A DNA stretch of 64,000 bases from NCBI GenBank assembly GCA_013824245.1, contig PNNN01000039.1, positions 75,250-139,249 on the forward strand. The letters run 5' to 3'. Below the pieces are notes generated by a model that ran no database searches, was not told the origin of the DNA, and worked only from the letters and a program-made list of their open reading frames with translations. The first letter of the stretch is position 1. Every line of letters starts with the position of its first letter. The DNA is from Chlorobiaceae bacterium (lineage in GTDB: Bacteria; Bacteroidota; Ignavibacteria; UBA10030; SZUA-254). A program made the position numbers and the translations under genes. This document shows, in pieces, positions 42,535 to 64,000 of the stretch.

Positions 42535-42598
42535 CATTAATCTGTTTTGTGTGGGATGTTAAAATAAATTATATTGTAATCAACAAGTTCTTTAATAA

Positions 42599-42740: not shown

Positions 42741-42827
42741 TATATTTATTGATTGTATCATTGAATCATTGACTGATTGAACAAATGAATCAATGGCTCA
42801 ATGATCAAGTGAGTCAATAAGCCAATT

Positions 42828-48402: not shown

Positions 48403-49929
48403 GTGCATATCAATAATATCAAAATAATTAAGCTCCTTGATAAGCTATTCCCCTCTTTAACGGCAAAAATCGCTGTTGCGATGCTGTTTGTATTTCTTTT
48501 AGCGGGCGGGGGATTCGTATATTTTGCCCATTATACCGGTTTTAAAATGCTCGAGAGAAGTTCACAATCTCAAGCCCATGGTGTAGCCGAGTTCAGCAAA
48601 GCTATACTTGAGCATATTATGTTGAATGGGGAAAATCGGCAACTACAATCAGCATTGAACAGAATTGTTTCTTCGCGGCATGCAACCGATATTCTTATTC
48701 TTCGGGAGGATGGTGAAATAGCGATGCGTGTCAGTTCGGGGGTTACATCGGAAAAATTACCACTCGAAAAATTTCGAGAACTTCCCGAATACCCGGGCGA
48801 GAAATTCTTATTCATCAACGAGAATGGATCGACATATCAATACATCATAACACCCATAAAGAAGAGGACAGATTGTTATCAATGCCATTCTGAGCCATTG
48901 GCGACCCAAGGTTTTCTTGGTGTAAAGATTTCTATGGATGATATCCGAGGTGTTGCACTACAGCATCGAACAACTAATATCATTATGACGATCATTACAT
49001 TCGTGGGACTTGGTGCGATGCTTTTTATAGCTCTTCTAATTGTAGTTTTACGGCCTATAAAAAAATTACGTTACCAGATCGGTGAAGTCGATCAACAAAT
49101 CGATAGATATGAAAAAGGAGAACGCGTACAGTTCGATAAATTGTTTATTTCAGACAGGGAAGATGAGGTAACAAGCGTAATGCGTGCATTCAACCGATTG
49201 ATACATCGGTTGAACGATGCAAACGAAAAAATTCGCGACCTTCACCAAATACAAATGGAACATGCAGATCGATTAGCGACAACCGGAGAAATGGCGGCGG
49301 GTATTGCGCATGAAATAAAAAATCCGATTACCGGCGTACTCGGAGCCCTTCATGTTTTCGATGGTGAAATGGAAGAAAGTGACGAACGGAAAGAAATTAT
49401 TGCTGAAATGATAGCTCAACTTGAACGGGTTAATTATGCGATTAACGATCTGTTGAGTTATGCGAGACCGGTTAATCCTGAATTTACCGAAACAGATATA
49501 GCTGAAATCGTGAGAAGAACAATTGGACTGTTGTCTCCTCAGAGCAAACAGCTAAACGCTGATATTCGAACGAATCTGACAGAAAATAAAATTTTAATAA
49601 ATGCCGATAAAAAACAAATCCAACAAATATTATGGAACATAACATTAAATGCACTCCAGGCGTTGGATGGTAAGGGAGTTGTCAATGTTCTTGTTGAGGA
49701 AGATGATGTAAGAGTTAAAATTCAAGTTAAAGATACCGGCAGAGGAATTCCAGACGAACATTTAAACTGCATTTTTCAACCATTCTTTACAACCAAGCAT
49801 AAAGGTACAGGTCTTGGTATGACGATCACGAAAAGAATAATTGAACAACATGGTGGAACAATTTCAATAGAAAGCCGTGTGAATGCGGGTACCACAGTAA
49901 TTATAATACTTCCAAAGAAACAAAACTAA
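48403..49929 (+). CDS. Sensor histidine kinase with periplasmic c-type heme (CYQCH), HAMP, HisKA and HATPase
   Basis: Two TM segments flanking a domain with CYQCH; AHEIKNP H-box; NALQA; DTGRGI; PFFTTK; GTGLG. Confidence 0.9.
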   Translation: MHINNIKIIKLLDKLFPSLTAKIAVAMLFVFLLAGGGFVYFAHYTGFKMLERSSQSQAHGVAEFSKAILEHIMLNGENRQLQSALNRIVSSRHATDILILREDGEIAMRVSSGVTSEKLPLEKFRELPEYPGEKFLFINENGSTYQYIITPIKKRTDCYQCHSEPLATQGFLGVKISMDDIRGVALQHRTTNIIMTIITFVGLGAMLFIALLIVVLRPIKKLRYQIGEVDQQIDRYEKGERVQFDKLFISDREDEVTSVMRAFNRLIHRLNDANEKIRDLHQIQMEHADRLATTGEMAAGIAHEIKNPITGVLGALHVFDGEMEESDERKEIIAEMIAQLERVNYAINDLLSYARPVNPEFTETDIAEIVRRTIGLLSPQSKQLNADIRTNLTENKILINADKKQIQQILWNITLNALQALDGKGVVNVLVEEDDVRVKIQVKDTGRGIPDEHLNCIFQPFFTTKHKGTGLGMTITKRIIEQHGGTISIESRVNAGTTVIIILPKKQN

Positions 49930-49939
49930 TAACGATAAA

Positions 49940-51307
49940 ATGTATTGTAAAAAAATATTGATTGTTGACGACGAACGTTTAATTCGATGGTCAGTGAAAC
50001 AAGAATTAATTAAGAGCGGATTCGAAGTTGTCGAAGCAGATTCGGTTAAATCTGCTCGTCAGGCAATTGTTGATGATGATCCCGACATAATGATTTTAGA
50101 TCAGATGTTACCCGATGGCACAGGAATAGATCTATTAACCGAGATACAGAACACCAATAGGATAATGCCGGTGATCATGTTGACGGCAGTTGATAAGTCG
50201 CATACAGCCGTTAAAGCTTTGAAACTTGGGGCTTTTGATTATGTAACAAAACCGGTAAATATTGAAGAGTTAATAATTATTATCGAGAGGTGTTGCGAAG
50301 CTACACGTTTGAAACGTCAGGTTGCTCAATTGATGAAAGATCAAGAAAAAACGGGTGGATTTTCCGGTTTACTCGGATCCTCTGCGCCAATGAAGAATGT
50401 TGGGGAACATATTAATAAAATTTCTCAGAGTAACTGCACAACCGTTCTGATTACCGGTGAGAGCGGAACAGGAAAAGAACTTGCAGCAAAAGCGATTCAT
50501 TTCCTCAGCGACAGGCGCGATAAACTTTTTTTACCTGTAAATTTTTCAGCTCTCACCGAGACCATTGTTGAAAGCGAGCTATTCGGACACGAAAGAGGCG
50601 CCTTCACAGATGCGAGGCAGCAGAAAAAAGGGATATTTGAACTGGCTGACAGCGGAACGATCTTACTTGATGAGATAGGTAATATATCTCCAAAAGTTCA
50701 AGTTAGATTGCTAAGAGTGTTGGAGCAAAAGATATTTCAGAGAGTTGGCGGGACTCAGGATATAAGCGTTGATGTCCGTATAATCGCCGCAACAAATCAG
50801 CCGCTTGAGCAGCTTGTGAAGGAAGGTAAATTTCGCTCCGATTTATATTACCGGTTAAATGTAGCGACTATTCAAATGCCACCTCTGCGTGACCGCGGTG
50901 ATGATATAATAACGCTTGCTGAATTTTTCATTCATGAATTCAACATTGCTTTTCATAAAAACTTTAAAGGCATTACCGAGGAAACAAAACAAATATTTTT
51001 AAGATATGATTGGCCCGGCAATGTACGTGAGTTAAGAAATGTTGTTGAACGTGCTGTGTTGATGGATGACGGCGAATATATATTCTCTCATTCCGTTGAA
51101 TTAGGACACATCCATAAATTGGGACACGAAAAACCAGAACTTGCGTTCGAGCTTGGTTCCTTGGGGCAATCATTAGACGATATAGAAAAACAGGTTTTAA
51201 CAAAAGCGCTGGAAAAAACAAACAAGAACCAATCTCAAGCTGCAAAGATTCTCAAGATCAGCCGAGACACTCTACGATACAGAATGAAGAAGCATGACCT
51301 GCTCTGA
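49940..51307 (+). CDS. NtrC-family sigma54-dependent response regulator
   Basis: Receiver (VDDE, LDQMLPDG); GESGTGKEL; ESELFGHERGAFTDA; WPGNVRELRN; Fis-type HTH. Confidence 0.95.
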   Translation: MYCKKILIVDDERLIRWSVKQELIKSGFEVVEADSVKSARQAIVDDDPDIMILDQMLPDGTGIDLLTEIQNTNRIMPVIMLTAVDKSHTAVKALKLGAFDYVTKPVNIEELIIIIERCCEATRLKRQVAQLMKDQEKTGGFSGLLGSSAPMKNVGEHINKISQSNCTTVLITGESGTGKELAAKAIHFLSDRRDKLFLPVNFSALTETIVESELFGHERGAFTDARQQKKGIFELADSGTILLDEIGNISPKVQVRLLRVLEQKIFQRVGGTQDISVDVRIIAATNQPLEQLVKEGKFRSDLYYRLNVATIQMPPLRDRGDDIITLAEFFIHEFNIAFHKNFKGITEETKQIFLRYDWPGNVRELRNVVERAVLMDDGEYIFSHSVELGHIHKLGHEKPELAFELGSLGQSLDDIEKQVLTKALEKTNKNQSQAAKILKISRDTLRYRMKKHDLL

Positions 51308-51313
51308 AATAGA

Positions 51314-51347
51314 TGAGGCGAATCACTCGGTTGAGTTATTTAACTCA
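51314..51347. promoter_or_regulatory. Tandem palindromes, candidate enhancer (UAS) for the bEBP
   Basis: TGAGGCGAATCACTCG (51314-29) and TGAGTTATTTAACTCA (51332-47), about 90 bp upstream of a -24/-12-like site. Confidence 0.45.
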
Positions 51348-51419
51348 CGTTATTTTAAAATTCAAATTTGAAATTTATTTTATTATTGTTTTCTGTTCTA
51401 TTTTGTGATATAAGATTGA

Positions 51420-51434
51420 TGGCATGAACTTTGT
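51420..51434 (+). promoter_or_regulatory. Candidate sigma54 promoter for the single-domain receiver
   Basis: TGGCAT-N5-TTGT; -12 is imperfect. Confidence 0.4.
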
Positions 51435-51452
51435 CATATATCGAAGCCAGCC

Positions 51453-51860
51453 ATGAATCTCAAAGAAGTAATGACCAAAAAACAAAGTTCACTGATACAG
51501 GTTTTAATCGTCGAAGATGAAGCTCTTATCGGATGGTCTTTGTCTCGTATCTTACAGAAAGCTGGATTTGCAGTTACTGTTGTTAATACTGGAGAGAAAG
51601 CAATAGAAAAATTTTGTGCCTCACATTTTGATATTGTACTTACTGATTACAAACTGCCTAAAATTGACGGTTATGTAGTTGCATCGAAAATTAAAGCAAA
51701 TTCCCCTCTAGTTCCGGTAATCCTCATGAGTGCTTACGATAATTATCCGGCTGGTAATAACATTCTACGATCTTCAATCGATCAATTCATAGAAAAACCT
51801 TTTACTTTATCTGAAATTACAAATGTACTACGTGCGTTCACTGTGAACCTTAAAAAGTGA
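51453..51860 (+). CDS. Single-domain (CheY-like) response regulator
   Basis: LIVEDE; LTDYKLP..DG; LMSAY; EKPF. Confidence 0.9.
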   Translation: MNLKEVMTKKQSSLIQVLIVEDEALIGWSLSRILQKAGFAVTVVNTGEKAIEKFCASHFDIVLTDYKLPKIDGYVVASKIKANSPLVPVILMSAYDNYPAGNNILRSSIDQFIEKPFTLSEITNVLRAFTVNLKK

Positions 51861-52025
51861 ACTGGATGATTGTTAACCTTTAAATCCGATAACTTAATAT
51901 ATAATCACGATTTACCCGTTCTCAACCTTGAAGAGGTATTACAATAATGATTGGGTGTTATGCCACAGCAGATAATAGGTTGATAAAAAAATAGTCGAAA
52001 TGCTCTAATAAATCGACAAAAAATT

Positions 52026-52041
52026 TGGCATTAAACATGCA
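52026..52041 (+). promoter_or_regulatory. sigma54 promoter for the multiheme cytochrome operon
   Basis: TGGCAT-TAAAC-ATGCA with GG and GC at canonical spacing, about 35 bp before ATG 52075. Confidence 0.65.
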
Positions 52042-52074
52042 CAAATAATTAAGGCGCTCTATATAATTATACAA

Positions 52075-53298
52075 ATGATATCTAAATATCTCACAATATC
52101 AATTTTATGCGTTCTCGGTGTTGTCTGTTTTTTAGGCGATACACCGCGATCTTCTTTGACGATTTTGGCTCCAGTTTATCCCGATTCGCTTGCTTATGAT
52201 CAGGGTCAACTATTTTTAATCACTTGTTCCAAAGAACAAACAACCGGTTTAATGATATCCACTCAATGGGCTGTTGAGAAGTTGATCGATATAGGCAGTA
52301 AGGCAAACAAAGATAATTTTGCCAAAGAAGTTTTTAAATTATTTCCAGCTAAGTCAACTCTTGAATTAGTCTCTACTTCTTTTCTGTTTTACAATGGATT
52401 CTCAAAAGCGGATTCCATTAGTTTCCCTTACATCGATACTATAACTGTTCGGTTTTTCTGGCAATTACCTCAGTTTGCCGAAATCATTCGTCAGGTACAA
52501 AATATCAATGCATCCCATGTTTTGCTTCAGATGCGAGGTTGGAAAGATACCGTTTATACTTCAACTCATCCCGATCCTATTAATCCCGATCAGGTATTAT
52601 ATCGCGCGTCAGTACAATTGTTGCCCGGTGCAAACAGGATATATTTTGCGAGCAATGGGATGAAAAATGAGGCAGAAGAATTTTTTGTTAACTTCGTGAC
52701 CAAAGCACGTAAGAGCGAATCTTACGATGTACAATTCCATGGTTCTCCCCTTGCTGTATCTTGTGCAAAATGTCATAAGGAATTGCCGAGCGAAACAAAT
52801 GCTGATGGTGAACGCGATAAATGCGGATTGTGTCATAACGAAATTGCAGGCGGTTTAATGAAACATGGTCCCGCGGCAGAACCGAAAGAATGTTCCACAT
52901 GTCATGAACGTTCTACAGAAAAAAATATTGAAATTGTTCCAAAAGGTGTTCCGGGTGTTTGTTTCGATTGCCATACCGAGAAGAAAGATGAAGTTGAGAC
53001 TTCGGCAGTAAAACACAAAGTTGCACACGATTGTGTAATTTGCCACTCACCGCACGCAACCGATCAGCCGAAATTTTTGAAGAATGATGTCTATCGTTTG
53101 TGCACCGGATGTCACCCGAACCATCTTATCAGTCATCCCGTCGATAAACACCCCATGCGATTTTCAAAATTAAATAAAGACTCAAACGAAGAAATTTCAT
53201 GTGTAAGTTGCCACAAGCCGCATGGTTCCGAAAACCGATCTTTATTAAAAGCCAGCGGTGGTTCAATGGCAGTGTGTATGCAATGTCATCAAAAGTGA
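52075..53298 (+). CDS. Octaheme cytochrome c (paired-CXXCH type) with a non-heme N-terminal domain
   Basis: Signal peptide; CAKCH, CGLCH, CSTCH, CFDCH, CVICH, CTGCH, CVSCH, CMQCH. Confidence 0.9.
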   Translation: MISKYLTISILCVLGVVCFLGDTPRSSLTILAPVYPDSLAYDQGQLFLITCSKEQTTGLMISTQWAVEKLIDIGSKANKDNFAKEVFKLFPAKSTLELVSTSFLFYNGFSKADSISFPYIDTITVRFFWQLPQFAEIIRQVQNINASHVLLQMRGWKDTVYTSTHPDPINPDQVLYRASVQLLPGANRIYFASNGMKNEAEEFFVNFVTKARKSESYDVQFHGSPLAVSCAKCHKELPSETNADGERDKCGLCHNEIAGGLMKHGPAAEPKECSTCHERSTEKNIEIVPKGVPGVCFDCHTEKKDEVETSAVKHKVAHDCVICHSPHATDQPKFLKNDVYRLCTGCHPNHLISHPVDKHPMRFSKLNKDSNEEISCVSCHKPHGSENRSLLKASGGSMAVCMQCHQK

Positions 53299-54212
53299 AT
53301 TCATATCGAATATTCTGTTTCTTGTTTGCGATGGCATCAATTGCCACCGCGCAAACAACATTCACCGATTTAGGAATTTCGGGCGGATCAAGTATCGTTA
53401 TGGCTCCTACAATTTCTGTTGCCCCCACTTCGCAGTTACGCGTTCATATGGGTCGAGTTGATTTTCTTCGCGGTGGCATGAAGGGATATAATGTATTCGG
53501 TCTGCAGGGTGGATTTTCAACCAACCTCGAAACATTCATTTCGATGTACAGCGAGCAAACCGGCTCAATTAATTCAAATGTATCATATGGAATTGGCGGC
53601 AAGCTTCTTTTGCCGTTCCGTGTTCCAGCGATTGGGAATCTCGCACTTTGGGGCGAAACGATCTCATCTACATTTTCATCCGAGAATGGAATGTTGCCAC
53701 AGAATATCACGCGGTTTTACATTATTGGGGGTAGATCTATTGGAAACTTTAACCCAATAATAATCGCCGGAGCAATGAATATTGACCATAAGTATTTACC
53801 GATAGCCGCTGTTGGAGGAACATTTCCTCTGAGCAGTGAAATAAAAATAGGCGGCGAAGGCATTTACAATTATTTCGGGATGAGAGAAAAACAAGGTATG
53901 CTGACCGGGATGATGAGAATTTTATCTAACATCAGTGTTCAGGTTAGCGGTGGATACATTCATTCCCAGCCGATGTCATCATGGATTTTTTCTGCCGGAC
54001 TTTCACTGGCAACAGCCGACTTGAATTTGTCTCCAAAGCCACAGGCAGCGCCAAAGGTTATTGTTCCGTCTTTTGAAGAGATGGAAAAAATGTCGATGGA
54101 GGAAAAAGGTATTGGACAAACTGTTCCACCTGTGCCGCCTGAGCAGGAAGAGAAAAAGCCGGAAACCCCGGAAGATAAGAAAGATGAAAAACAAAATGAT
54201 CCGCATAAATAA
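53295..54212 (+). CDS. Putative outer-membrane beta-barrel (YjbH-like) with Pro/charged tail
   Basis: GTG overlapping the upstream stop gives the signal peptide MNSYRIFCFLFAMASIATA; GISGGSSIVMAPT; alternating amphipathic strands; PPVPPEQEEKK tail. Confidence 0.55.
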   Translation: MNSYRIFCFLFAMASIATAQTTFTDLGISGGSSIVMAPTISVAPTSQLRVHMGRVDFLRGGMKGYNVFGLQGGFSTNLETFISMYSEQTGSINSNVSYGIGGKLLLPFRVPAIGNLALWGETISSTFSSENGMLPQNITRFYIIGGRSIGNFNPIIIAGAMNIDHKYLPIAAVGGTFPLSSEIKIGGEGIYNYFGMREKQGMLTGMMRILSNISVQVSGGYIHSQPMSSWIFSAGLSLATADLNLSPKPQAAPKVIVPSFEEMEKMSMEEKGIGQTVPPVPPEQEEKKPETPEDKKDEKQNDPHK

Positions 54213-54230
54213 GATAAAGATAATTTGATT

Positions 54231-55247
54231 ATGAAAGATATATTGAAAAAAATATTGTTAGTTGTGATAATAATTGGCGCTAATTCATTTTATGGGTGTG
54301 GTTCAAAAAATATTCAGAAGGAAGATATTGCATGGCCCAGTCCGCCCGATGAACCTCGCATAAGATATATAAAGACATATGAAAGCGAAGATGATTTTCT
54401 TTCAAAGTTTGGAATTTTTGCACAGAGCTTAACCGGAAAAGGCGGAACTATCTCGCTTAGTCGTCCTTTCGATGTTTGTAGTGACGGTAAAGGACGAATT
54501 TTTGTAACCGATGTTGCGCAAGGAATTATTGTTTTCGATGAAAACCAGAAGAAAGTATTAGCTCTCGGAGAAAATATTCCTGTTCCGCTCGGCAACCCGC
54601 TCGGAATTGCTTATGGAGATAATAAATTATTCGTCGGCATAGCGGAAATAGGGCAGGTTGTTGCTATGACTCCCGAAGGAAAATTCCTCAATCTTATCGG
54701 AAAATCTGGTTCTTTCCCTAATCCGGTTGATGTTGATTATGATAAATTAAACAAACGAGTGGTGGTTGTCGATAATAAAAACCATCAGGTATATATTTAT
54801 TCTGAAGGTGGAGATTCACTGCTGACGATAGGTAAGCGCGGCGATGCTGATGCTGAATTCAATTATCCTCAAAGCGTGGCAGTTGATACTGCCGGGAATA
54901 TTTATGTGGTAGATGCGTTCAACTTCCGCATACAGGAATTCGACTCGCATGGTAAGTTTATACGAAAATACGGACAGCAGGGAAATGTCTTCGGTACATT
55001 TGCACGCCCGAAGGGTATTGCTCTTGATATGTATCAGAATATTTATGTTGTCGATGCGATGCATCAAAATTTTCAAATATTCAATCAAAATTTCGAACTG
55101 CTTCTTTTTGTAGGCAAATTCTCGAATAAAGATAATTGGGGGTTTCAAAATCCAATTGGAATCTCCGTTGATCAAAACAATACAATTTATGTTGCAGACC
55201 AGTTGAACCAGAGGATACAGGTGTTTCAACTGTTAAAACCAGATTAA
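54231..55247 (+). CDS. NHL-repeat six-bladed beta-propeller lipoprotein (copy 1)
   Basis: FYGC lipobox; WPSPPDEPRI; FNYPQSVAVD, FARPKGIALD, FQNPIGISVD, NQRIQVF repeats. Confidence 0.9.
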   Translation: MKDILKKILLVVIIIGANSFYGCGSKNIQKEDIAWPSPPDEPRIRYIKTYESEDDFLSKFGIFAQSLTGKGGTISLSRPFDVCSDGKGRIFVTDVAQGIIVFDENQKKVLALGENIPVPLGNPLGIAYGDNKLFVGIAEIGQVVAMTPEGKFLNLIGKSGSFPNPVDVDYDKLNKRVVVVDNKNHQVYIYSEGGDSLLTIGKRGDADAEFNYPQSVAVDTAGNIYVVDAFNFRIQEFDSHGKFIRKYGQQGNVFGTFARPKGIALDMYQNIYVVDAMHQNFQIFNQNFELLLFVGKFSNKDNWGFQNPIGISVDQNNTIYVADQLNQRIQVFQLLKPD

Positions 55248-55353
55248 TTCTAAAAAATAAAAAATCCACTTCCTCAATGCCTCATGAGGGAAAGGATTAT
55301 GTTCAATCACGAGGCAGTAAAAAACAAAATCATTAATCTAAGGAGTAATTAGT

Positions 55354-56013
55354 ATGAAACAACTTTTAGTTGTAGCAGTGATGATACTTGTTGCCGCATC
55401 TTTCGTTATGGGACAAACGTTAGGAATGGCAACCAGCAAGCACAACTTTGCATTATCTTCAACGAACACCATCAAAGGCGCTTCGGAGAAGGTTTGCGGA
55501 TATTGCCATACACCACACGTTCCGGCAACCGGAATTAAAGCACCGCTATGGTCACGTGCGAAATTAGTATCGACCGGTTACGGTGTATATTCAAGTCCAA
55601 CAATGGATGCTACGCTAACCGCACTTGATGCAGGTCAGGATAATGTTAGCTCTATGTGTATGAGCTGCCACGATGGCAGCGCATTATTTGCTTCAGCGGC
55701 TTATGTGAAACGTCCACACGCTGGATCAGTCGTGTGGGATCCATACATAGCGACAACAGTTGGTGATGCAGCAAACCTGCATGCCGGAACAAAGTATGGT
55801 ACAGGTTTATCACACACACATCCGGTGAATTTCGCCTATAATGCAGCATTAGTAACTGCCGACGGTGGATTACAAGGGACGCCGTTGAACAATTTACCGC
55901 TATACAACGATATGATGCAATGCGGAAGCTGCCATAATCCGCATCTCACGAGCAAAATGACTCGTGTTACAAGCGATGGCGGTTTACTCTGTATTTCATG
56001 TCATGTTAAGTAA
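55354..56013 (+). CDS. OmcE-like tetraheme cytochrome c (copy 1)
   Basis: SKHN..CGYCHTPH..PLWSR..YSSPTM..CMSCHDG..HPVNF..CGSCHNPH..LCISCHVK; strong RBS AAGGAG. Confidence 0.8.
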   Translation: MKQLLVVAVMILVAASFVMGQTLGMATSKHNFALSSTNTIKGASEKVCGYCHTPHVPATGIKAPLWSRAKLVSTGYGVYSSPTMDATLTALDAGQDNVSSMCMSCHDGSALFASAAYVKRPHAGSVVWDPYIATTVGDAANLHAGTKYGTGLSHTHPVNFAYNAALVTADGGLQGTPLNNLPLYNDMMQCGSCHNPHLTSKMTRVTSDGGLLCISCHVK

Positions 56014-56031
56014 GTAACGATTAATATTGTG

Positions 56032-56059
56032 CGACTCATCCCGATAACGGGATGGGTCG
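56032..56059 (+). terminator. Strong hairpin after the cytochrome gene (stabiliser or partial terminator)
   Basis: cgactcatcccg-ataa-cgggatgggtcg; no U-tract. Confidence 0.45.
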
Positions 56060-56084
56060 TACAAATAAATTGGCAAGGGGAAAA

Positions 56085-57758
56085 GTGAAGCGAGTATTCA
56101 TTATAGCGCTTTTATTAGTGCTATCTATTTATAGTGGCGTCAGTCAGCTTTCGTCGATCAACGGTGAGCTGCGTTATCAGCATCAGTATCAGGATGCTTA
56201 TAGCGGTGGCGCTTTTTATAAACTAATCCGGAAAAATCCGCAGTTTATTTTCGGTACAATGGGTTATATTTTATCCCCCATGATTTTTTCCTTCGATGTC
56301 CGCACCAACATCAACTTAAACTATAACAATTCATCTTTCGCCGGCGTCAACAGTTCTTTCAAGCAAACCATTATAGGGTTTTATGACCTGAATGTTAATG
56401 CTCTGCAACGATTGCCGGTTCGTGTCTCGTTTTCTGCCCGTGATCAGCAGATCAAATCATCTTCGCAATTCAGTAAATTCAATGTCGGTTTCGATGATTA
56501 CAGGCAGCAGCAACAGCGTATCGAATTTTCGACGATGAATTTGAAGTTTTTACCAGCTACCTCTTTTGCATATCAACGTATCCGCAATTGGTCCGATATA
56601 TCATTGAACCGCTTTAATCAGCTTATGCAAGAACTTACACTGAATATGTCTCAATCCACACAAGATGCATCGGTGAGTTTATCGGGATCACTCAGCGAGA
56701 ATTATGAGAGTTTTACAAACAACAGGTTAAGGTACCTACGTTTTCAGATGAGCGGTAACAAAGAATTTTCAGCCAATCACCGCGCAGATATATCTTCCGA
56801 ATATTATAAATTCGAAAATACATCGATGATAAATGCCAATGGCATTTACAACGGCACGCTATTCGAGAAATTCCGATTCAACACCAATATTTTAGCTCGA
56901 AATGCGAACTCTCAATCGGCATCATCAACAACACTCGGATTAGGACAGACTATCCAGTTTCTCCAGAATGAAAATTTTAATTATTCGGTTTCTTTTAATA
57001 ATCAATCCACATACGACATCTACATTCAGGAGAATAACAGTTACAAACAACGTACCGATAATTTGGCGGGATCGGGAACGATTCAACATATGAGGTCTAT
57101 CAGCGATATCACATTTTCTAACGGAATATCTTTCGGCTATGCGAAGCAAGATTCCCGTTTAGGGCAGAGGTCGTACAACGGCGGGCTGACAAACAGTTTT
57201 CAAACCACTTCCGGCGGTTATCAAATAAATGCAAATCAAATGTTTAGCATGACAAGAATTAAAGGATATCTCGGGCGAGATGAAATCAACAACTTAGTGA
57301 ACATGATGATTGGTAAAACTTTGCCGTACCAAATCAATTCTCAGACAGGTATCGAGTTTCGGAATGAACGCCGGTCGAACACGAATGAGCTTTTTTATAA
57401 ATATCAAACAATCCAATTGCGACAACATTTAAATACGTCTATCTATATATATAGTCCGTTTACCGTTTCTGTTGAAGGAACAATGAATTGGATATCAAAC
57501 GGCGTTAAAGGGCATATGTACGGAATAACGGCAAACATAAACAGCGGTCGTTTCTTTTTACAAAATTTATCTATGAATTATCGTCTAAGTCGGACGTACG
57601 ATATATATTATAGAAGACCGTATATGGAGCAGACAATTGAGTTTACATATAACTGGCGCGCTCTTGCATTCCAGCTAAGGTTACAGGAATTCAGGTTCAT
57701 CGATACGCGTCATGATGTCTGGTTCAGTGTAACAAGACCGTTTAACATTGGATTATGA
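56085..57758 (+). CDS. Large putative outer-membrane beta-barrel (porin of a porin-cytochrome complex?)
   Basis: Signal peptide from GTG 56085; S/N/Q/T-rich with alternating aromatic/hydrophobic strands throughout; no heme motif. Confidence 0.6.
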   Translation: MKRVFIIALLLVLSIYSGVSQLSSINGELRYQHQYQDAYSGGAFYKLIRKNPQFIFGTMGYILSPMIFSFDVRTNINLNYNNSSFAGVNSSFKQTIIGFYDLNVNALQRLPVRVSFSARDQQIKSSSQFSKFNVGFDDYRQQQQRIEFSTMNLKFLPATSFAYQRIRNWSDISLNRFNQLMQELTLNMSQSTQDASVSLSGSLSENYESFTNNRLRYLRFQMSGNKEFSANHRADISSEYYKFENTSMINANGIYNGTLFEKFRFNTNILARNANSQSASSTTLGLGQTIQFLQNENFNYSVSFNNQSTYDIYIQENNSYKQRTDNLAGSGTIQHMRSISDITFSNGISFGYAKQDSRLGQRSYNGGLTNSFQTTSGGYQINANQMFSMTRIKGYLGRDEINNLVNMMIGKTLPYQINSQTGIEFRNERRSNTNELFYKYQTIQLRQHLNTSIYIYSPFTVSVEGTMNWISNGVKGHMYGITANINSGRFFLQNLSMNYRLSRTYDIYYRRPYMEQTIEFTYNWRALAFQLRLQEFRFIDTRHDVWFSVTRPFNIGL

Positions 57759-57767
57759 TGTTACCTC

Positions 57768-57945
57768 GAAAGACTCCAGATATCAGACATCAGATTAAAA
57801 ACCTCTCTTCGCAATCCCCCTTGCCAGAGAGAAGGGATTGGAGTTGTCCGCTTATGGCGGACTCTCCAATTCCGTATGTTTTTGGGGGATTTGGCGCTGT
57901 GATATTTAACGGAAATATTATAGTCAGTGATCTGGGGAATTGCAA
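57768..57945. repeat. Repeat-derived spacer inside the cytochrome operon
   Basis: cagatat/cagacat periodic units; aatcccccttg..aagggatt; ttggagttgtccgcttatggcggactctccaa; gggaattgcaatattccc. Confidence 0.5.
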
Positions 57946-58000
57946 TATTCCCATAAATGATATAAGTTTTATAGGTACCAAAATTGGCATTAATAAAATC

Positions 58001-59008
58001 ATGAAGTTATTCATAATTACATTTTTATCGTTTTACATGCTGTTATTATTTGGTTGCGGAACGTCGAAGGAAGCAATTCCCGATTACGTTTGGCCCCCAC
58101 CGCCCGAAAAAGCCCGGATTAAATTTGTGAACATTATTAAGGGGAAAGATTATTTCGAATCATCAGGAATAGATAAGGTGTTGAGTGTTCTTGCGGGCGA
58201 GCATACAGGTACAACTTTTGAGCGTCCTTATGCGGTAGCTGTTGATGCAACAGGAAATATTTATGTATCCGACACAAGCTTGAAGAAAGTTTTTGTGTTC
58301 GATGTTACTCAAAAACAAATTCGCACGATCGGCGATAAAGGAAGTGCAAAACTTCAATCTCCCATCGGGATTGCAATTGCATCCTCAAATAAAATATTCA
58401 TAGCCGATTCAAAAGTAAGACGTGTTTTTGCGTACGACTTAGAAGGTAATTTACTTTTCGGAATTGGTGAAGAAAACGAATTTGCATCGCCAACCGGTTT
58501 GGCTTTCGATTCATCCTCAAGCCGACTTTATGTGGTTGATACAAACAATCATCTGGTTAGAGTGTACAATGATGAAGGAAAATTTTTATTCACGTTCGGC
58601 AAACGCGGTGGCGACGACGGTGAGTTTAATTTTCCAACAAACATCACTGTACATAAAGGAAAAGTGTATGTTGTAGATACTATTAACGGACGAGTTCAGA
58701 TTTTCGATCTGGAAGGGAAATTTGTTTCGAAATTCGGGCAACTTGGAAATACGCCAGGATATTTCTCGCGTCCAAAGGGTATCGCGCTCGATTCATTCGG
58801 ACATATCTATATAGTAGATGCTGCGTTCGATAATTTTCAGTTGTTCAATGAAAAAGGGGAGGCGCTGATGTTCATCGGACAAGCCGGCGCAGGTATTGCA
58901 GAATTTCAATTGCCCGCGGGGATTTTCATTGATAAAGATAATTATATTTATGTTGTCGACCAGCTCAACGCGCGCGTACAGGTTTTTCAATTCATCGGTA
59001 AAGAATAA
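58001..59008 (+). CDS. NHL-repeat beta-propeller lipoprotein (copy 2)
   Basis: LLFGC lipobox from ATG 58001; WPPPPEKARI; FNFPTNI, FSRPKGIALD, FQLPAGIFID, NARVQVF. Confidence 0.9.
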   Translation: MKLFIITFLSFYMLLLFGCGTSKEAIPDYVWPPPPEKARIKFVNIIKGKDYFESSGIDKVLSVLAGEHTGTTFERPYAVAVDATGNIYVSDTSLKKVFVFDVTQKQIRTIGDKGSAKLQSPIGIAIASSNKIFIADSKVRRVFAYDLEGNLLFGIGEENEFASPTGLAFDSSSSRLYVVDTNNHLVRVYNDEGKFLFTFGKRGGDDGEFNFPTNITVHKGKVYVVDTINGRVQIFDLEGKFVSKFGQLGNTPGYFSRPKGIALDSFGHIYIVDAAFDNFQLFNEKGEALMFIGQAGAGIAEFQLPAGIFIDKDNYIYVVDQLNARVQVFQFIGKE

Positions 59009-59043
59009 TAAAATAAATTAATTTCATCATTAAGGAGTTACAC

Positions 59044-59730
59044 ATGAAGTACTTACTAATCGTCATTACACTGATTTTGATTGTTGCGGTGATAGGATCT
59101 GCACAGATCAGAAATAGTAAACACGATTTATCATTCGGTTCAACAACAACCGGTCCGAAAACCACAACCAGCACTTATACCGAGGTTTGCGTTTTCTGTC
59201 ATACACCACACTCTACACAGAGCACAAGTTTACTTTGGAACCGAACTGCTTCTACTGCATCGTACGCAGTTTATTCCAGTCCGACCATGGAACAAACAGT
59301 TCCGCAGCCGGGTGCAGTTTCTAAAAACTGTCTTAGTTGCCACGATGGTACCATAACATTGGCAAGCGTTGTTAATAATCCGGGCAGTAGTGGTGGAATA
59401 GCTCCGGTTTTCACCGCTCCGGGTAAAATTGATACCACAGTATTCACAGGAATTGGAACAAACCTCACAAACGATCATCCTATCGGTTTTGTTTACAACA
59501 CAAGTCGTTCAACTGACGCGGATTTACGAACCGAAACAGTTGCCGGTATAAAAGTAACCGTCAATGCTACTTCTCCGACCAGATCATTAACACTTTACGG
59601 TACAACCGCTGCCAGTGCAACACTCGAGTGCGGAACCTGTCATGATCCTCACGGAGTAACCGGTGTTCCAACATTCTTAAGAGTATCGAATAGCAACAGC
59701 GAACTCTGCTTTACGTGCCATGTTAAGTAG
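59044..59730 (+). CDS. OmcE-like tetraheme cytochrome c (copy 2; closest to OmcE as recalled)
   Basis: IRNSKHDLSFGS..VCVFCHTPH..LLWNR..YSSPTM..CLSCHDG..GTNLTNDHPIGF..TLECGTCHDPH..FLRVSNSNSELCFTCHVK; RBS AAGGAG. Confidence 0.85.
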   Translation: MKYLLIVITLILIVAVIGSAQIRNSKHDLSFGSTTTGPKTTTSTYTEVCVFCHTPHSTQSTSLLWNRTASTASYAVYSSPTMEQTVPQPGAVSKNCLSCHDGTITLASVVNNPGSSGGIAPVFTAPGKIDTTVFTGIGTNLTNDHPIGFVYNTSRSTDADLRTETVAGIKVTVNATSPTRSLTLYGTTAASATLECGTCHDPHGVTGVPTFLRVSNSNSELCFTCHVK

Positions 59731-59785
59731 CAAAGAAACTTTAAACACAGCTTTGTTCCGATACAAGAAAATATTATAATTAAGC

Positions 59786-60781
59786 ATGATAAAATTTTGC
59801 CGAATTATATTATTACTTAGCACTATTTTCTTTATGGAACAAGCGGCGGCTCAAAGTTCTTCCACCGAACTTGTTTGGCCCCCCCCGCCGCAAAAAGCGC
59901 GAATACAACATCTTCGTACAATTTCAAATTTGAACGAAGTAGCATCTGAGCAGGGATTTTTTTCTCGCGTGATGAATTTCTTGTTTGGTGGAACAGAATC
60001 CCGGCATGGATTCGTTCAACCGGTTGGTATCGCTGTTTCTCAATCGGGCGTTATCTACATTGCCGACCCGGGTGCAAATTGCGTTCATATTCTGAATTTA
60101 GATGAAAAAGAATATTCTGTCGTTTCAGAAACAAAAGCCGGAAAACTAAAATCACCTGTTGGTTTGGCTTCAGCTTCGAATGGTTATCTATACATCTCTG
60201 ATTCGGAACGGAAAGAAATTTTGGTTTTAGACGAAGACCTTTCATTTCAATTCGTAATCCGGAATAATTTTGTGAGACCAACAGGTATTCAGATTATAAA
60301 TGGAAAGTTATTCATTGTTGATACGGGTCAGAATAAAATTTTTATTTTCGATCTTAACGGAAAGTTTATTTCGGAATTCGGAAGACGCGGAAGTGGAGAC
60401 GGAGAGTTTAATTATCCGGTACAATTATGCGCCCGCAATTCAATTTATATTGTCGATGCACTGAACTTTCGAATTCAAATGTGTGATGTATCCGGTAAGT
60501 TCGCCGGTCAATTTGGAGGAATAGGTAACAGCGCGGGGAGCTTTGCCAATCCCAAATCGATTGCACTCGATTCCGAAGGTCACGTTTACGTAACCGATGC
60601 GTTGATGGATAATTTTCAAATATTCGATAGTCAGGGACAGCTATTACTCGTTGTTGGAAGCAAAGGAAACGGAGATGGTGAATTTATGAGTCCAAGCGGT
60701 ATAGCAATAGACGCAAATGATACAATTTATATTGTTGACTCACTTAATAAGAGATTACAAATATTCAGGTATATGAAGTGA
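59786..60781 (+). CDS. NHL-repeat beta-propeller (copy 3; Sec signal, no lipobox)
   Basis: WPPPPQKARI; FNYPVQL, FANPKSIALD, FMSPSGIAID, NKRLQIF. Confidence 0.9.
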   Translation: MIKFCRIILLLSTIFFMEQAAAQSSSTELVWPPPPQKARIQHLRTISNLNEVASEQGFFSRVMNFLFGGTESRHGFVQPVGIAVSQSGVIYIADPGANCVHILNLDEKEYSVVSETKAGKLKSPVGLASASNGYLYISDSERKEILVLDEDLSFQFVIRNNFVRPTGIQIINGKLFIVDTGQNKIFIFDLNGKFISEFGRRGSGDGEFNYPVQLCARNSIYIVDALNFRIQMCDVSGKFAGQFGGIGNSAGSFANPKSIALDSEGHVYVTDALMDNFQIFDSQGQLLLVVGSKGNGDGEFMSPSGIAIDANDTIYIVDSLNKRLQIFRYMK

Positions 60782-62670
60782 AAATAAAATTGTTAAAAAT
60801 ATTATTAATTGTGTCCGTATCGCTTATAACGTTCGGTCAGGTATTTTCCCAAACGAGCATCGTAAGCTCGAAGCATAATTTAAGCACAACCGGAACAGGT
60901 ACTATTAAGGCAACAAGCGAAACTCAAGTTTGCGTTTTTTGCCATACCCCACACAGTAAGCAAGTTACGTCTCAATTGTGGAATCATCAACCAACCACAG
61001 CTACATATACATTATACAGCAGTGATTATCTTACATCGAAAAGTTATCCTGCTTCAACACAGCCGGGTACAAAATCAAAACTGTGTTTAGCATGTCACGA
61101 TGGTACAATCGCAATCGGTGCCGTTTATAATACCACAGGATCCAGTTCTGCCGGAACCATTACAATGGCAAGCGGTATAACGACATTACCATCGGGTCAA
61201 TCGACAAATGTAGGTACATCTTTAGTGAACGATCATCCGGTGGGATTTGCATACGATGCTACAAAAGATCCGGAATTGGTATCAAGAACATGGCCCTGGA
61301 ATAGTGCAATTAAATTAGATCCCGATGCTTCAAATGGCAAAGTCGAATGCACGTCGTGTCATGAACCGCATCATAATACAAACGGGAAGTTCTTACAAAT
61401 CTCTAACACGAATGCGGCACTTTGCACATTTTGTCATAATAAAACTAATTGGGCGGCTTCGATTCATAAAACTTCTACTCAAAGTTATACACCATCCGGC
61501 TCCACAACCACTACAGTTGGCGAATGGTCTTGCCGCAATTGTCATCGATCTCACAATGGACAAGGAGTCCCTTATCTGTTAAATCTCGTAGAAGAAAATA
61601 CCTGTTACCAATCAAGCTGTCACGGTTCAACAACTCCCGGAATTAATACGAAAGATATTCAAACACAGGCAAATAAAACTTATAAACATCCAACAAATAC
61701 AGTGAGCGGCAAGCACAAGAATCCTGATAACTCGACAAGTTTAAATGTCCCGAATCGTCACGCCGAATGCTATGATTGCCATAACAGCCATCAGGCGAAA
61801 GATGGATTGCATACGTTGAAAAGCAATGCTGTTTCAAATGTATTAACAGGTGTTTGGGGTGTTACACCCGGTACAGCTACAATATGGACTCAACCAACAA
61901 CGTTCACCATAATAAATCCGGTTACAAAGGAGAATCAGATTTGTTTTAAATGCCATTCATATAATGCTTTTGGATTTGCGTTAAACGGCGTTACAACCAT
62001 TGTTGGACCATCCGGGGTGAATATCACCGATCAAGCGATGGAGTTTAACACGGCAAATAAATCAGCACATCCGGTTGTAGTATCAACGAACAACCAAACA
62101 GGATCAACGGCACCAAAGGCGCTCACTACAACGCAAATGAGTACGACTTGGAATAGTGTTGGAACACAGACAATGTATTGCGGCGATTGCCACGGTAACG
62201 ATCAAGCTACTTCTGCAACTGTTCCTCAGGGTCCGCATGGGTCGAACGCGAAATTCATATTAACAGGTACGGCAAAATATTGGCCCCTTAACGCTTCCGG
62301 AAATCTCTGGTCGCTTAATGACTTAAGGAACAATCTTAATAATTGGTCTACGAATCTTTTTTGTGTAAATTGTCATCCGATTTATAGCGGTGGAAGTTTT
62401 AAAAACAACACCCATTCCAGAAATCAACATCAGGGTGTCGCCGTCAAGTGCGTTGCCTGTCATGTAACAGTACCGCATGGAGCGAAGCGATCGCGCCTGA
62501 TTGGTTATCGAACTGATGTTTATCCGTATAATTACAATGGCGCCGGACAGTTTGAAAAATTAGTGATCAGTGGGTTTCGGAAAGCATCGAGTCCGAATAA
62601 CTACATCAAAAGTGATTGCACTTTCACTAGCGGTTGTCATGGTACACAAAGCGGTACATATGAACCATAA
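60778..62670 (+). CDS. Multiheme cytochrome c: N-terminal OmcE-like tetraheme module plus ~8 further hemes
   Basis: 10 CXXCH (CVFCH, CLACH, CTSCH, CTFCH, CRNCH, CYDCH, CFKCH, CGDCH, CVNCH, CVACH) plus CYQSSCH (CX4CH) and CTFTSGCH (CX5CH); T/S/N-rich. Confidence 0.88.
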   Translation: MKIKLLKILLIVSVSLITFGQVFSQTSIVSSKHNLSTTGTGTIKATSETQVCVFCHTPHSKQVTSQLWNHQPTTATYTLYSSDYLTSKSYPASTQPGTKSKLCLACHDGTIAIGAVYNTTGSSSAGTITMASGITTLPSGQSTNVGTSLVNDHPVGFAYDATKDPELVSRTWPWNSAIKLDPDASNGKVECTSCHEPHHNTNGKFLQISNTNAALCTFCHNKTNWAASIHKTSTQSYTPSGSTTTTVGEWSCRNCHRSHNGQGVPYLLNLVEENTCYQSSCHGSTTPGINTKDIQTQANKTYKHPTNTVSGKHKNPDNSTSLNVPNRHAECYDCHNSHQAKDGLHTLKSNAVSNVLTGVWGVTPGTATIWTQPTTFTIINPVTKENQICFKCHSYNAFGFALNGVTTIVGPSGVNITDQAMEFNTANKSAHPVVVSTNNQTGSTAPKALTTTQMSTTWNSVGTQTMYCGDCHGNDQATSATVPQGPHGSNAKFILTGTAKYWPLNASGNLWSLNDLRNNLNNWSTNLFCVNCHPIYSGGSFKNNTHSRNQHQGVAVKCVACHVTVPHGAKRSRLIGYRTDVYPYNYNGAGQFEKLVISGFRKASSPNNYIKSDCTFTSGCHGTQSGTYEP

Positions 62671-62764
62671 TGAAATTTACATCGAACAGTCATTATACAG
62701 TTAATAAAGTAAAGTATATTTTCTTAATGCCCCGCAAAATAAAATTAAAAACAAGGTACATGTT

Positions 62765-64000
62765 ATGAAGCGAAAAATATTAATTCTTTTTTCCTTAACA
62801 ATATTATTCCTACTCTCCTTAGTTACGATGGGATACGGTCAGGAAAATGTGAAGCAGTCATGTATAACAGCTAAGTGTCATGTGAATTTTGGGAAAGCAA
62901 AATTTGTCCATGGACCGGTTGCGGTAGGTGAATGTATCTCGTGTCATCAGCTTCTCCCGAAGGAAGATCATAAATTCCAGCCGATAAAAAATGTAGAAGA
63001 ACAATGCAATAAGTGCCACGAACCGATGGCGAAGAAAGGGACTGTGCATGCGCCGGTTGCGAAGGGCGAATGTGCTAAATGCCACGATTCTCATCAGTCG
63101 GACAGGCAATTTCAGTTAAAGAAATCTTCTACGAGCGACTTGTGCTTTTCATGCCATCCAAAAAATCTGATAACTAAAAAGTTTACACATGGTCCGGCAG
63201 CAGATGGCGAATGTTTATCGTGCCACCTGCCGCACATGAGCGAGAAACCGCAATTATTAACAAAAGCATCTAACGATCTGTGCTTTCAATGCCATACCGA
63301 TTTTCAGGAATCTTTCGCAGCGGCAAAAAATATTCATAAACCGGCAGGTGAAAATTGCGCGCAATGCCATAATCCACACAGCGCCGATGCAAGATTTTTA
63401 CTTGCAAGCAATACACCCGATCAATGTTATACATGCCATGCTGCTATTCAGACATCGGCAACGAAATCTACAGTGAAGCATGTTGCGCTCGATGAAGAGA
63501 AAAAATGTTTAGCTTGTCATTCCCCACATACCGCAAATCATATCAAACAATTAACAGAAGAACCGATGGCACTTTGTTTAAAATGCCACGACAAATCGCT
63601 GGTTGAAAAGGGGAATAAGCTTTCGGATATGAAAACACTGTTCGATAAAAATATTAATTGGCACGGACCGATACGCGAACGCGATTGCTCCGGTTGTCAT
63701 GAAGTTCATGGCTCACAAAATTTCCGGCTATTAACCCAAACATATCCGCCGGAATTTTATACACCATATGCTTCTGAAAAATATGAACTATGTTTTAACT
63801 GCCATCAAAATACGCTTGCGCAGGATCCGACAACCATGACTTTAACTGGTTTTCGAGATGGAAGTCGGAATCTTCATTATCTTCATGTCAATAAAAAAGT
63901 TAAGGGAAGAACTTGTCGTGCATGCCATGAAACCCATGCGAGTAATAACGACAGGCATGTCCGCGAGTTGGTTCCATTCGGACAATGGATGTTGCCGGTA
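62765..64000 (+). CDS. High-heme paired-CXXCH cytochrome c, truncated by the window edge; absent from the ORF track
   Basis: Manual translation from MKRKILILFSLTILFLL: CITAKCH (CX4CH) plus 13 CXXCH (CISCH, CNKCH, CAKCH, CFSCH, CLSCH, CFQCH, CAQCH, CYTCH, CLACH, CLKCH, CSGCH, CFNCH, CRACH); GFRDGSRNLHYLHV..KGRTCRACH. Confidence 0.9.
   Translation, partial: MKRKILILFSLTILFLLSLVTMGYGQENVKQSCITAKCHVNFGKAKFVHGPVAVGECISCHQLLPKEDHKFQPIKNVEEQCNKCHEPMAKKGTVHAPVAKGECAKCHDSHQSDRQFQLKKSSTSDLCFSCHPKNLITKKFTHGPAADGECLSCHLPHMSEKPQLLTKASNDLCFQCHTDFQESFAAAKNIHKPAGENCAQCHNPHSADARFLLASNTPDQCYTCHAAIQTSATKSTVKHVALDEEKKCLACHSPHTANHIKQLTEEPMALCLKCHDKSLVEKGNKLSDMKTLFDKNINWHGPIRERDCSGCHEVHGSQNFRLLTQTYPPEFYTPYASEKYELCFNCHQNTLAQDPTTMTLTGFRDGSRNLHYLHVNKKVKGRTCRACHETHASNNDRHVRELVPFGQWMLPV

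Follow-up and report, generated by a model that had tools for sequence, protein, structure and literature searches.

Two classes of NHL propeller genes, each beside its own type of OmcE-like cytochrome gene, in a putative extracellular cytochrome cluster of a Chlorobiaceae bacterium

In a stretch of 64,000 nucleotides from a Chlorobiaceae bacterium (contig PNNN01000039.1, positions 75,250 to 139,249 of the forward strand; the whole of it is called the window below), genes for NHL beta-propellers and genes for cytochromes resembling OmcE, the filament cytochrome of Geobacter sulfurreducens, alternate three times. Why should each cytochrome gene be preceded by a propeller gene of its own? A preliminary description had seen here a three-fold repeated module in which each propeller is the cognate partner of one filament subunit. 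The three pairs are present, all on the + strand: NHL1 (54231-55247) precedes Cyt1 (55354-56013), NHL2 (58001-59008) precedes Cyt2 (59044-59730), and NHL3 (59786-60781) precedes Cyt3 (60778-62670), with the stop of NHL3 overlapping the start of Cyt3 by 4 bp. The modules are, however, not equivalent: two associate a propeller of one class (A) with a tetraheme (T), one of these two being an extra pair, and the third associates a propeller of another class (B) with a fusion protein (F). The reading that we favour, with a probability of about one half, is that these genes form the core of a cluster for an OmcE-type extracellular cytochrome and an outer-membrane electron conduit, and that the propellers are partners of the OmcE-fold proteins encoded next to them.

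What are the cytochromes? In phmmer searches of the PDB, Cyt1 (219 amino acids, four CxxCH motifs) matches the OmcE filament of G. sulfurreducens (7tfs_A) over its full length (E 4.2e-20), Cyt2 (228 amino acids, four CxxCH motifs) matches the same chain at E 4.1e-37, and Cyt3 (630 amino acids) at E 3.3e-29, over residues 20-222 only. All three also match 9yuq_N, from a 16-chain filament entry (E 5.6e-32 for Cyt2). The two entries are solved OmcE filaments, of G. sulfurreducens (PDB 7TFS) and of D. soudanensis bundles (PDB 9YUQ). The columns invariant across Cyt1, Cyt2 and G. sulfurreducens OmcE are H27, C49/C52/H53, H56, C96/C99/H100, H145, C196/C199/H200, H203 and C222/C225/H226. Cyt1 keeps the four CxxCH motifs and the four distal His; Cyt2 has exactly eight His, the number needed for four bis-His hemes. 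The eight heme-ligand His, that of the N-terminal K-H arm included, are invariant in the T and F families (25 F-type proteins). Which His ligates which heme in such bis-His ligation is predicted here from sequence, as is the formation of filaments in this organism. Cyt1 has 11 His, with extras at RPHAG, NLHAG and SHTHP, which are worth a look given the "stopper" subunit with extra His raised in a preprint on omcE clusters (bioRxiv 10.1101/2025.10.22.684050).

Cyt3 consists of an OmcE-like head (residues ~20-222, four hemes) and a heptaheme tail (residues 226-630; 61453-62667). To its ten CxxCH motifs is added one CX4CH (C276-H282), and, because the latter is invariant in 25 relatives, Cyt3 is counted as an undecaheme. 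The profile of the F family matches 7tfs at E 2.6e-44, and the head, which keeps the eight His of OmcE, could join in the same subunit contact. The search of the PDB gave no solved relative of the tail. Among 1.84 billion representative proteins the tail has 1217 matches (221 at E ≤ 1e-30), and it occurs in three forms: behind an OmcE head (~620-720 amino acids), alone (350-500 amino acids), and at the extreme C-terminus of giant multihemes (1000-3800 amino acids). Its constant C-terminal position, behind heme domains that vary, would suit a piece that docks or anchors. Around four tail-bearing giants the gene contexts differ, and one of the four has an NHL-containing gene close by. In locus L168, a 925-amino-acid protein containing NHL repeats is encoded two genes upstream of a tail-bearing giant.

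The three propellers match the NHL family PF01436 (81.5, 101.6 and 95.8 bits for NHL1, NHL2 and NHL3, with a cut-off of 20; E 2e-23, 1e-29 and 6e-28) and DUF5128 (PF17170; 39-83 bits, with a cut-off of 22.9). As noticed in the preliminary description, all begin with WPxPPxxxRI, which follows the signal sequence (WPSPPDEPRI in NHL1, WPPPPEKARI in NHL2 and WPPPPQKARI in NHL3). The W-P-x-P-P segment is invariant or nearly so in an alignment of 18 propellers (the three of the window and 15 relatives from many phyla), and WPxPPxxxR(I/V) after a signal peptide or lipobox is found in most of the 139 propellers of the loci discussed below. We define here a WPxPP-type cytochrome-associated NHL subfamily by the signal peptide or lipobox, the motif, the propeller and a neighbouring gene with an OmcE domain; the three propellers of the window have all of these. 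Read by eye, NHL1 (..FYGC/GSK) and NHL2 (..LFGC/GTSK) carry a lipobox and NHL3 a plain signal peptide, in agreement with the two lipoproteins and one soluble protein reported earlier.

Does the adjacency hold outside the window? It was followed from both sides: 80 genome loci were collected with the propeller alignment as the sole query (no cytochrome in it), and 80 metagenome loci with OmcE-like tetrahemes as the sole query. OmcE domains were recognized with a hidden Markov model (HMM) built from the three copies of the window only, and separate HMMs served for the propeller and the barrel; the sampling by propeller reaches ~41% identity to NHL2. A match to the OmcE HMM is present in 79 of the 80 propeller-fetched loci. 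They contain 140 propeller genes, 4 of them at a contig edge; for 105 of the 136 with readable downstream sequence, an OmcE-domain gene follows on the same strand within 500 bp. In the metagenome loci, a propeller lies directly upstream of 26 of the 28 determinable fusion-type genes and adjoins 42 of the 55 tetraheme genes (27 upstream, 15 downstream). Down to that identity, NHL genes equally common without OmcE-like neighbours, which the preliminary description had held to speak against partnership, were not seen.

In most loci the order is mN A T4 BAR B F10-12 (m13), in which m is a multiheme gene with its number of hemes and BAR the gene of a putative barrel. The core m A T BAR B F occurs in Bacteroidota, Acidobacteriota, Nitrospirota, Campylobacterota, Aquificota, Binatia, Poribacteria, Thermodesulfobacteriota and others, in more than ten phyla. 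The step from B to F is nearly universal (48/52, the remainder mostly at contig ends). A 4-bp overlap is seen in 15 of 49 pairs, and in 32 of 40 the distance between the two genes is between -8 and +60 bp; spacing this tight suggests coupled translation. The A–T association is looser, with an OmcE-domain gene at most 1.2 kb from 69 of the 87 A-type genes, sometimes upstream. Pentaheme OmcE-like genes (T5) lie upstream of NHL-A in several Nitrospirota (L025, L031, L036, L052, L053, L061, L063 and L072); such genes correspond to a five-heme class of OmcE-like proteins for which a single exposed heme was predicted (bioRxiv 10.1101/2025.10.22.684050).

Do propellers and cytochromes pair by class? 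In a neighbour-joining (distance) tree with bootstraps, 142 propellers split deeply into A and B. Clade B (bootstrap 70/100) contains 53 propellers, among them all 38 that precede a fusion-type cytochrome. In the corresponding tree of 134 OmcE domains, all fusion heads fall in one clade, F. The classes of adjoining pairs agree in 97 of 97 cases (A–T 49, B–F 48, none mixed). Because clade definitions can be circular, a tree-free test was added. Each propeller was matched with its closest relative from a different locus, and the downstream architectures of the two agree for 94 of the 97, against 50.6 ± 5.6 (maximum 67) under permutation; the three exceptions all involve one fusion gene cut at a contig end. 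Ten clade-B propellers precede stand-alone tetrahemes of the F clade, which are followed by a heptaheme gene. Since these heptahemes match the tail of Cyt3 (E 5e-13 to 7e-10) and 4 + 7 = 11 hemes, the two genes are taken together as the F protein in split form. Clade A consists mainly of lipoproteins (65 of the 82 with the motif) and clade B mostly has a plain signal peptide, which explains the two lipoproteins and the one soluble propeller of the window. From these comparisons, the propeller classes appear to have kept their partners since before the lineages exchanged or inherited the cluster.

Two further arrangements were seen. The split undecahemes occur in Nitrospira-type loci (L035, L043, L045, L055, L057-L059) and in L014, L015 and L066; these loci have no T-type OmcE and carry two dodecaheme genes upstream. 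A third, weakly scoring kind of NHL propeller is present in L007 (17265-20939), in L017 (11999-15737) and, on the minus strand, in L040, L047 and L056, where it precedes large multihemes (15 hemes) or sits in a divergent operon with tri- and hexahemes. The pairing of propellers with cytochromes may extend beyond OmcE domains.

How might such pairs work? Each propeller would bind the OmcE-fold protein of the adjoining gene as a partner, with neither a redox nor an enzymatic activity of its own. It may keep the subunit unpolymerised and export-competent, or dock it at the barrel. The membrane-tethered A type would serve the polymerising tetraheme and the soluble B type the fusion protein, whose OmcE head could join the filament end while its heptaheme tail would connect to the conduit. 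Published mutant phenotypes of GSU2505, an NHL gene that adjoins omcS, and of Gmet_0556 speak for this reading: NHL genes that neighbour cytochromes of the outer surface are reported to be important when electrodes or Fe(III) oxide are reduced. The contact between propeller and cytochrome, the escorting or docking role and the locations of the proteins are all putative. The assembly chaperone, nucleator and membrane anchor, offered as roles in the preliminary description, are not distinguishable from sequence.

The secretion and assembly of OmcE have been called unanswered, and an analogy with chaperone-usher pili has been raised (bioRxiv 10.1101/2025.10.22.684050). The analogy is functional only, with a polymerising secreted subunit, a periplasmic partner from an adjoining gene, a big barrel and variant minor subunits. 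Here, the fold of the partner is that of an NHL propeller, and subunits would polymerise through His-heme ligation, not donor-strand exchange; no PapD-like chaperone or usher domain was found among the cluster proteins with Pfam and NCBIfam. A bolder proposal, which we hold to be doubtful, is that OmcE-type nanowires outside the Geobacter lineage use a dedicated chaperone-usher-like pathway with two subunit-specific propeller escorts, in which NHL-A would hand T to the barrel and NHL-B would escort F as an adaptor. The F head might then cap or nucleate the filament via the same His-heme contact, and the F tail might plug the wire into the conduit or form a reactive tip. If this were true, the two T subunits of the window, each with its own escort, would mean two kinds of filaments, or a major and a minor subunit.

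Several observations weigh against a partnership of propeller and cytochrome. A mirror-tree comparison drew on the 23 non-redundant loci in which A–T and B–F both occur. Every distance matrix is correlated with the others (0.73-0.87), and the cognate pairs do not stand out: A–T gives 0.73 versus 0.85 for A–F, and B–F 0.86 versus 0.83 for B–T. The difference between cognate and non-cognate correlations is -0.07 by bootstrap (95% -0.18 to +0.06). The cluster is inherited as one block, and the pair-specific co-evolution proposed earlier as a check on partnership does not appear. No NHL gene adjoins 13 of the 55 T genes of the metagenome loci; T comes before A in Aquificota, Campylobacterota and some Nitrospirota; and in eight Nitrospira-type loci NHL-A lies beside an m9 or m11 gene and the barrel gene, with no T gene. 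The F clade has a bootstrap of 24/100, as expected for a short, fast-evolving domain. The AlphaFold2 model of Cyt3 (25-sequence alignment) has a predicted local distance difference test score (pLDDT) of 36.5 and is unusable for fold or complex. Besides, one chaperone serves all subunits in chaperone-usher pili, and subunit-specific escorts would be unusual by that standard. Of the cognate partnership first suggested, then, the stable paralog-specific adjacency stands (97/97), but without cognate-specific co-variation and with NHL-A existing also without T.

Could the propellers belong to the conduit instead? They would then be generic structural subunits of it (octaheme, lipoprotein and barrel), comparable to the accessory lipoproteins of other barrel machines (BamB, for instance); individual OmcE-like proteins would not be recognised by them, and their adjacency to cytochromes would be a frozen operon order. 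This is a serious alternative, which we consider possible although rather unlikely. The barrel concerned is the 568-amino-acid product of BAR (56052-57758, + strand), a putative outer-membrane beta-barrel for which the scans of Pfam (MtrB family included), NCBIfam and the PDB gave no match. With an iterated HMM, a single copy was recovered from 61 of the 80 loci, always between T and NHL-B. Its relation to the barrel of the Geobacter omcE cluster is weak (28 bits with hmmsearch, 62% probability with hhalign), and its identification as a barrel follows the description of omcE clusters in the literature.

Gene order offers this alternative much of what it needs: in 31 loci (Geobacter included) NHL-A is immediately preceded by an m8 or m9 gene, NHL-A is retained beside the barrel without T in the Nitrospira-type order m9 A BAR, NHL-B comes directly after the barrel gene (31 + 8 of 52), and all four proteins co-vary equally. 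Yet a frozen order of conduit genes agrees poorly with propeller classes that never swap cytochrome partners, and, in the window, no multiheme gene lies upstream of NHL2. There is one barrel gene per locus, and in duplications and in an inversion the propeller moves with the cytochrome, not with the barrel. Additional A–T pairs occur independently in L016 and L069, besides that of the window and its two ~70%-identical relatives (L001 and L002), and in L045 a B–T'–m7 unit is inverted en bloc. Because propeller and cytochrome are duplicated or inverted together, the pair behaves as an evolutionary unit.

What the propellers bind can be approached through their fold. The AlphaFold2 model of NHL2 (pLDDT 89; predicted template-modelling score 0.85) has 23 strands after residue 76 and an N-terminal strand at 40-46 (RIKFVNI, within the conserved motif); the preceding WPPPP segment is confidently modelled. 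On this strand count the model reads as a six-bladed propeller with its last blade completed by strand 40-46. With Foldseek, the nearest folds are NHL domains of the TRIM type (template-modelling score, TM, 0.85-0.89 by target for the NHL2 model). Eukaryotic TRIM-NHL domains (Thin, TRIM2/3/71, Brat) have the same six-bladed NHL propeller and are the nearest solved folds (E 1e-25 to 1e-17, TM 0.79-0.89 by target, 18-30% identity); they bind RNA or protein in eukaryotic cells and, unlike the propellers here, have no lipobox, WPxPP segment or link to cytochromes. In the 18-protein alignment, the residues that never vary are the Gly, Pro, Asp, Asn, Arg and aromatics of the blade motif. No position keeps a His, Cys or Ser throughout, and this speaks against a site for metal or catalysis. 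The propellers are thus best described as binding proteins, for which the gene context suggests the ligand.

That ligand might also be a surface, with the propellers as adhesion or mineral-binding modules that would attach the cell or the filament to Fe/Mn oxides or to partner cells. In its favour, A-type propellers are lipoproteins, a kind of protein that can be surface-exposed in Bacteroidota. Adhesion was proposed for Gmet_0556 by earlier authors, and the binding of mineral nanocrystals for the Geoalkalibacter NHL proteins encoded next to an OmcE homolog. Such a function is unlikely: the B type is usually not membrane-anchored, no metal-binding His or Cys is conserved, and the strict pairing of paralogs and the 4-bp gene overlaps fit a protein partner better than a mineral.

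Is the three-fold pattern simply the by-product of a tandem duplication of A–T, with an extra pair that is redundant or decaying? The layout m8 A T4 BAR A T4 B F10 m13 is found only in the window, L001 and L002, and NHL1 and Cyt1 are on long branches. NHL2 is the ortholog of the canonical Bacteroidota NHL-A (59% and 56% identical to NHL-A of L003 and L004), and Cyt2 is 53% identical to the T gene of L003. NHL1 is ~40% identical to all A-type propellers outside the group of its own orthologs, and the best matches of Cyt1, beyond its orthologs in L001 and L002, are T genes of betaproteobacteria (37-38% identity). Decay is contradicted by the state of the pair, since NHL1 and Cyt1 are intact, with lipobox, WPxPP, heme motifs and His ligands kept, and are 52-66% identical to their counterparts in L001 and L002. 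A recent redundant copy is contradicted by the trees, in which NHL1 and NHL2 are sisters in 24/100 bootstraps and Cyt1 and Cyt2 in 0/100. With such weak sister support the extra pair would be old or acquired, an old duplication and a horizontal acquisition being inseparable. A recent duplication at the DNA level was considered and rejected: the paralogs of the window are 32-41% identical at the protein level, and the DNA repeats of the window reflect NHL blade motifs only. We regard the redundant pair as quite improbable. The window contains two ancient classes and one extra, divergent A–T pair, a repeat of gene order and not of DNA.

An enzymatic role in the maturation of cytochromes (as lyases, lactonases or modifying enzymes) is suggested by weak Pfam matches to SGL/gluconolactonase and arylesterase families and by PAL and virginiamycin B lyase among the distant structural matches, but it was rejected as a leading idea for lack of conserved catalytic residues and is very improbable, since those Pfam matches score close to the curated cut-offs or less and lie under those to NHL and DUF5128, the invariant residues are purely structural blade residues, the three-His zinc site that PAL has is absent, and the best structural matches are the non-enzymatic TRIM-type NHL domains.

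How does the cluster compare with known systems? In a 2025 preprint of the groups behind the OmcE filament structures, clusters of omcE are defined by a beta-propeller lipoprotein and a large barrel, and the smallest of them amount to OmcE, the barrel and two each of multihemes and propeller lipoproteins (bioRxiv 10.1101/2025.10.22.684050). In the window, OmcE homologs, propeller lipoproteins, multihemes and a barrel-like protein of putative fold are all found. Three loci of Desulfuromonadia, G. sulfurreducens included, have the order c7–resB–ccsB–m–m8–NHL–OmcE–barrel–glycosyltransferases, in which the G. sulfurreducens propeller beside OmcE has a lipobox and FWPPL. As in the window, there is a tetraheme with conserved ligands, a propeller lipoprotein upstream, a barrel downstream and multihemes upstream. 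The first unit of the window thus follows the Geobacter-type order m–m8–NHL–OmcE–barrel, and the second unit adds what Geobacter does not have. Unlike the window, the three Desulfuromonadia loci have neither NHL-B nor a fusion with an OmcE head, and they carry ccsB/resB and glycosyltransferase genes, which the cluster of the window does not; the two T-type subunits, each with its own propeller, are also particular to the window in this comparison. According to the preprint, the OmcE operons that it examined encode no OmcE-like protein whose additional solvent-exposed hemes would make it a candidate for a tip or stopper (bioRxiv 10.1101/2025.10.22.684050). In the clusters described here, an OmcE-like protein with extra hemes is encoded.

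The closest published description of the wider cluster form is the Uet cluster of 'Ca. Tenderia electrophaga' and Gallionella, with an extracellular tetraheme UetA, a barrel UetC, and two NHL proteins UetH/I encoded immediately ahead of an undecaheme UetJ, in an order that is conserved (bioRxiv 10.1101/2022.05.06.490989; PMC10734462). The heme counts of 4 and 11 are those of T and F here, the comparison being one of descriptions and not of sequences. The Uet cluster adds a prolyl isomerase, three triheme c7 cytochromes and a cupredoxin, and both of its NHL genes precede the undecaheme, unlike in the window. With Pfam and NCBIfam, no prolyl isomerase, c7 or cupredoxin domain was found in the window genes between 52075 and 64000.

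In Desulfovibrio ferrophilus IS5, propeller proteins are encoded beside outer-membrane cytochromes in the clusters DFE_448-451 and DFE_461-465 and were proposed to stabilise complexes; their homologs are widespread in sediment bacteria (PMC5815863). Those cytochromes are described as larger outer-membrane multihemes and not as OmcE homologs, again a comparison by description. For the osc operon of G. sulfurreducens, folding by OscH, secretion by OscE/F/G and an effect on morphology by OscD have been proposed (Shen et al. 2025, as cited in PMC13194489). By that account, the likeness lies in a filament cytochrome encoded with dedicated accessory proteins; the difference, also taken from description, is that the filament belongs to the hexaheme OmcS family and that the cluster of the window has no prolyl isomerase. 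OscD is presumed to be propeller-like.

The preliminary description held that the role of these NHL proteins was not established. This is so in that roles have only been proposed; propeller lipoproteins were, however, already described in omcE and other cytochrome clusters. In the literature covered, which is incomplete, no paper was found that describes the OmcE-like head of the undecaheme or a paralog-specific pairing. Propellers in omcE clusters are thus known, and the paralog-specific pairing and the B–F pair are apparently undescribed. They bear on how cytochrome nanowires leave the cell, how they begin, how they are anchored and how they end: the common form of the cluster encodes an undecaheme with an OmcE head and its own soluble propeller, and a separate propeller, a lipoprotein, goes with the tetraheme subunit. 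A WPxPP propeller beside an OmcE domain also provides a sequence rule for nanowire-type clusters in sediment, aquifer and deep-subsurface metagenomes. Were the propellers mere conduit subunits, the annotation of a widespread electron-transfer cluster would still be improved.

The remaining genes of the cluster are on the same strand, as is every large open reading frame (ORF) from 52075 to the end of the window. MHC0 (52075-53298, +) encodes an octaheme cytochrome of the DmsE/MtrA-like type (eight CxxCH; Paired_CXXCH_1 E 2.7e-24; similarity to the DmsE family is weak). It is the m8 gene found ahead of NHL-A in many loci and in Geobacter. Between it and NHL1, ORFx (53283-54212, +) encodes a secreted protein of 309 amino acids, annotated with the same length in the public copy of the locus, with a C-terminal tail rich in Pro, Glu and Lys. 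ORFx has no Pfam or NCBIfam match, and among the 80 genome loci its homologs are found only in L001 and L002. The earliest possible start of NHL1 is a TTG at 54225. After Cyt3, MHC13 (62765-64000, +) runs past the end of the window; it encodes a DmsE/GSU2203-like multiheme with at least 13 hemes (13 CxxCH; Paired_CXXCH_1 E 1.7e-67), and an m13 gene follows F in L001-L004. In the favoured reading, the multihemes of the cluster would be periplasmic and MtrA-like. MtrCAB and other porin-cytochrome conduits have a periplasmic decaheme of the MtrA/DmsE family inserted in an MtrB-type porin; against the decaheme models of DmsE and GSU2203, MHC0 and MHC13 stay below the cut-offs, with 63.8 and 126 bits for the former (cut-off 192) and 139 bits for the latter (cut-off 325).

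Where does NHL2 start? Its longest ORF begins at 57755, overlapping the stop of BAR, and the public gene call uses that start. Neither L001 nor L002 conserves the 82 additional codons in its ortholog, and within these codons lie two adjacent strong hairpins and, after them, a U-rich stretch (57805-57873, +; minimum free energy -35.2 kcal/mol). Located between the BAR gene and NHL2, the hairpins are conserved in both relatives with a compensatory change in the inner stem (z -4.8 in the window, -6.5 and -8.6 in L001 and L002). Because the extension is not conserved and houses conserved hairpins, the long ORF is unlikely to be real, and the start is placed at 58001 (MKLFII..LFGC). The hairpins are probably a terminator, an attenuator or an mRNA-stabilising element, and they probably divide the cluster into [MHC0–ORFx–NHL1–Cyt1–barrel] and [NHL2–Cyt2–NHL3–Cyt3–MHC13]. 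A scan of 51300-64000 for consensus promoters and terminators gave counts equal to the shuffled expectation and missed the hairpins, and the Rfam scan gave no match inside the cluster.

Directly upstream of the cluster are three regulatory genes, which are present too in the public copy of the locus: a histidine kinase (48403-49929, +; Pfam HisKA/HATPase_c), a sigma54-dependent response regulator of the NtrC type (49940-51307, +; Response_reg, Sigma54_activat and HTH_8) and a single-domain receiver (51453-51860, +; Response_reg). An element resembling a sigma54-type -24/-12 promoter, TGGCATTAAACATGCA, lies 34 bp 5′ of MHC0 (52026-52041, +). It reads TGGCAT-N5-ATGCA, with two mismatches to TGGCAC-N5-TTGCW. 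The number of matches to the sigma54 pattern in the window is not above chance, and the element is credible only because the block TTTGGCAC..CATGCA is kept in L001 and L002 amid otherwise diverged intergenic DNA.

Elsewhere in the window, a separate octaheme cytochrome is encoded 19 kb upstream of the cluster (31896-33299, +; PF11783, Cytochrome_cB, E 2e-70). A molybdenum/tungsten cofactor riboswitch (42590-42751, +; Rfam RF01055, 68.5 bits, E 2e-14) precedes genes for an NTPase-domain protein, a TonB-dependent receptor, a DUF364 protein and a MobA-like protein.

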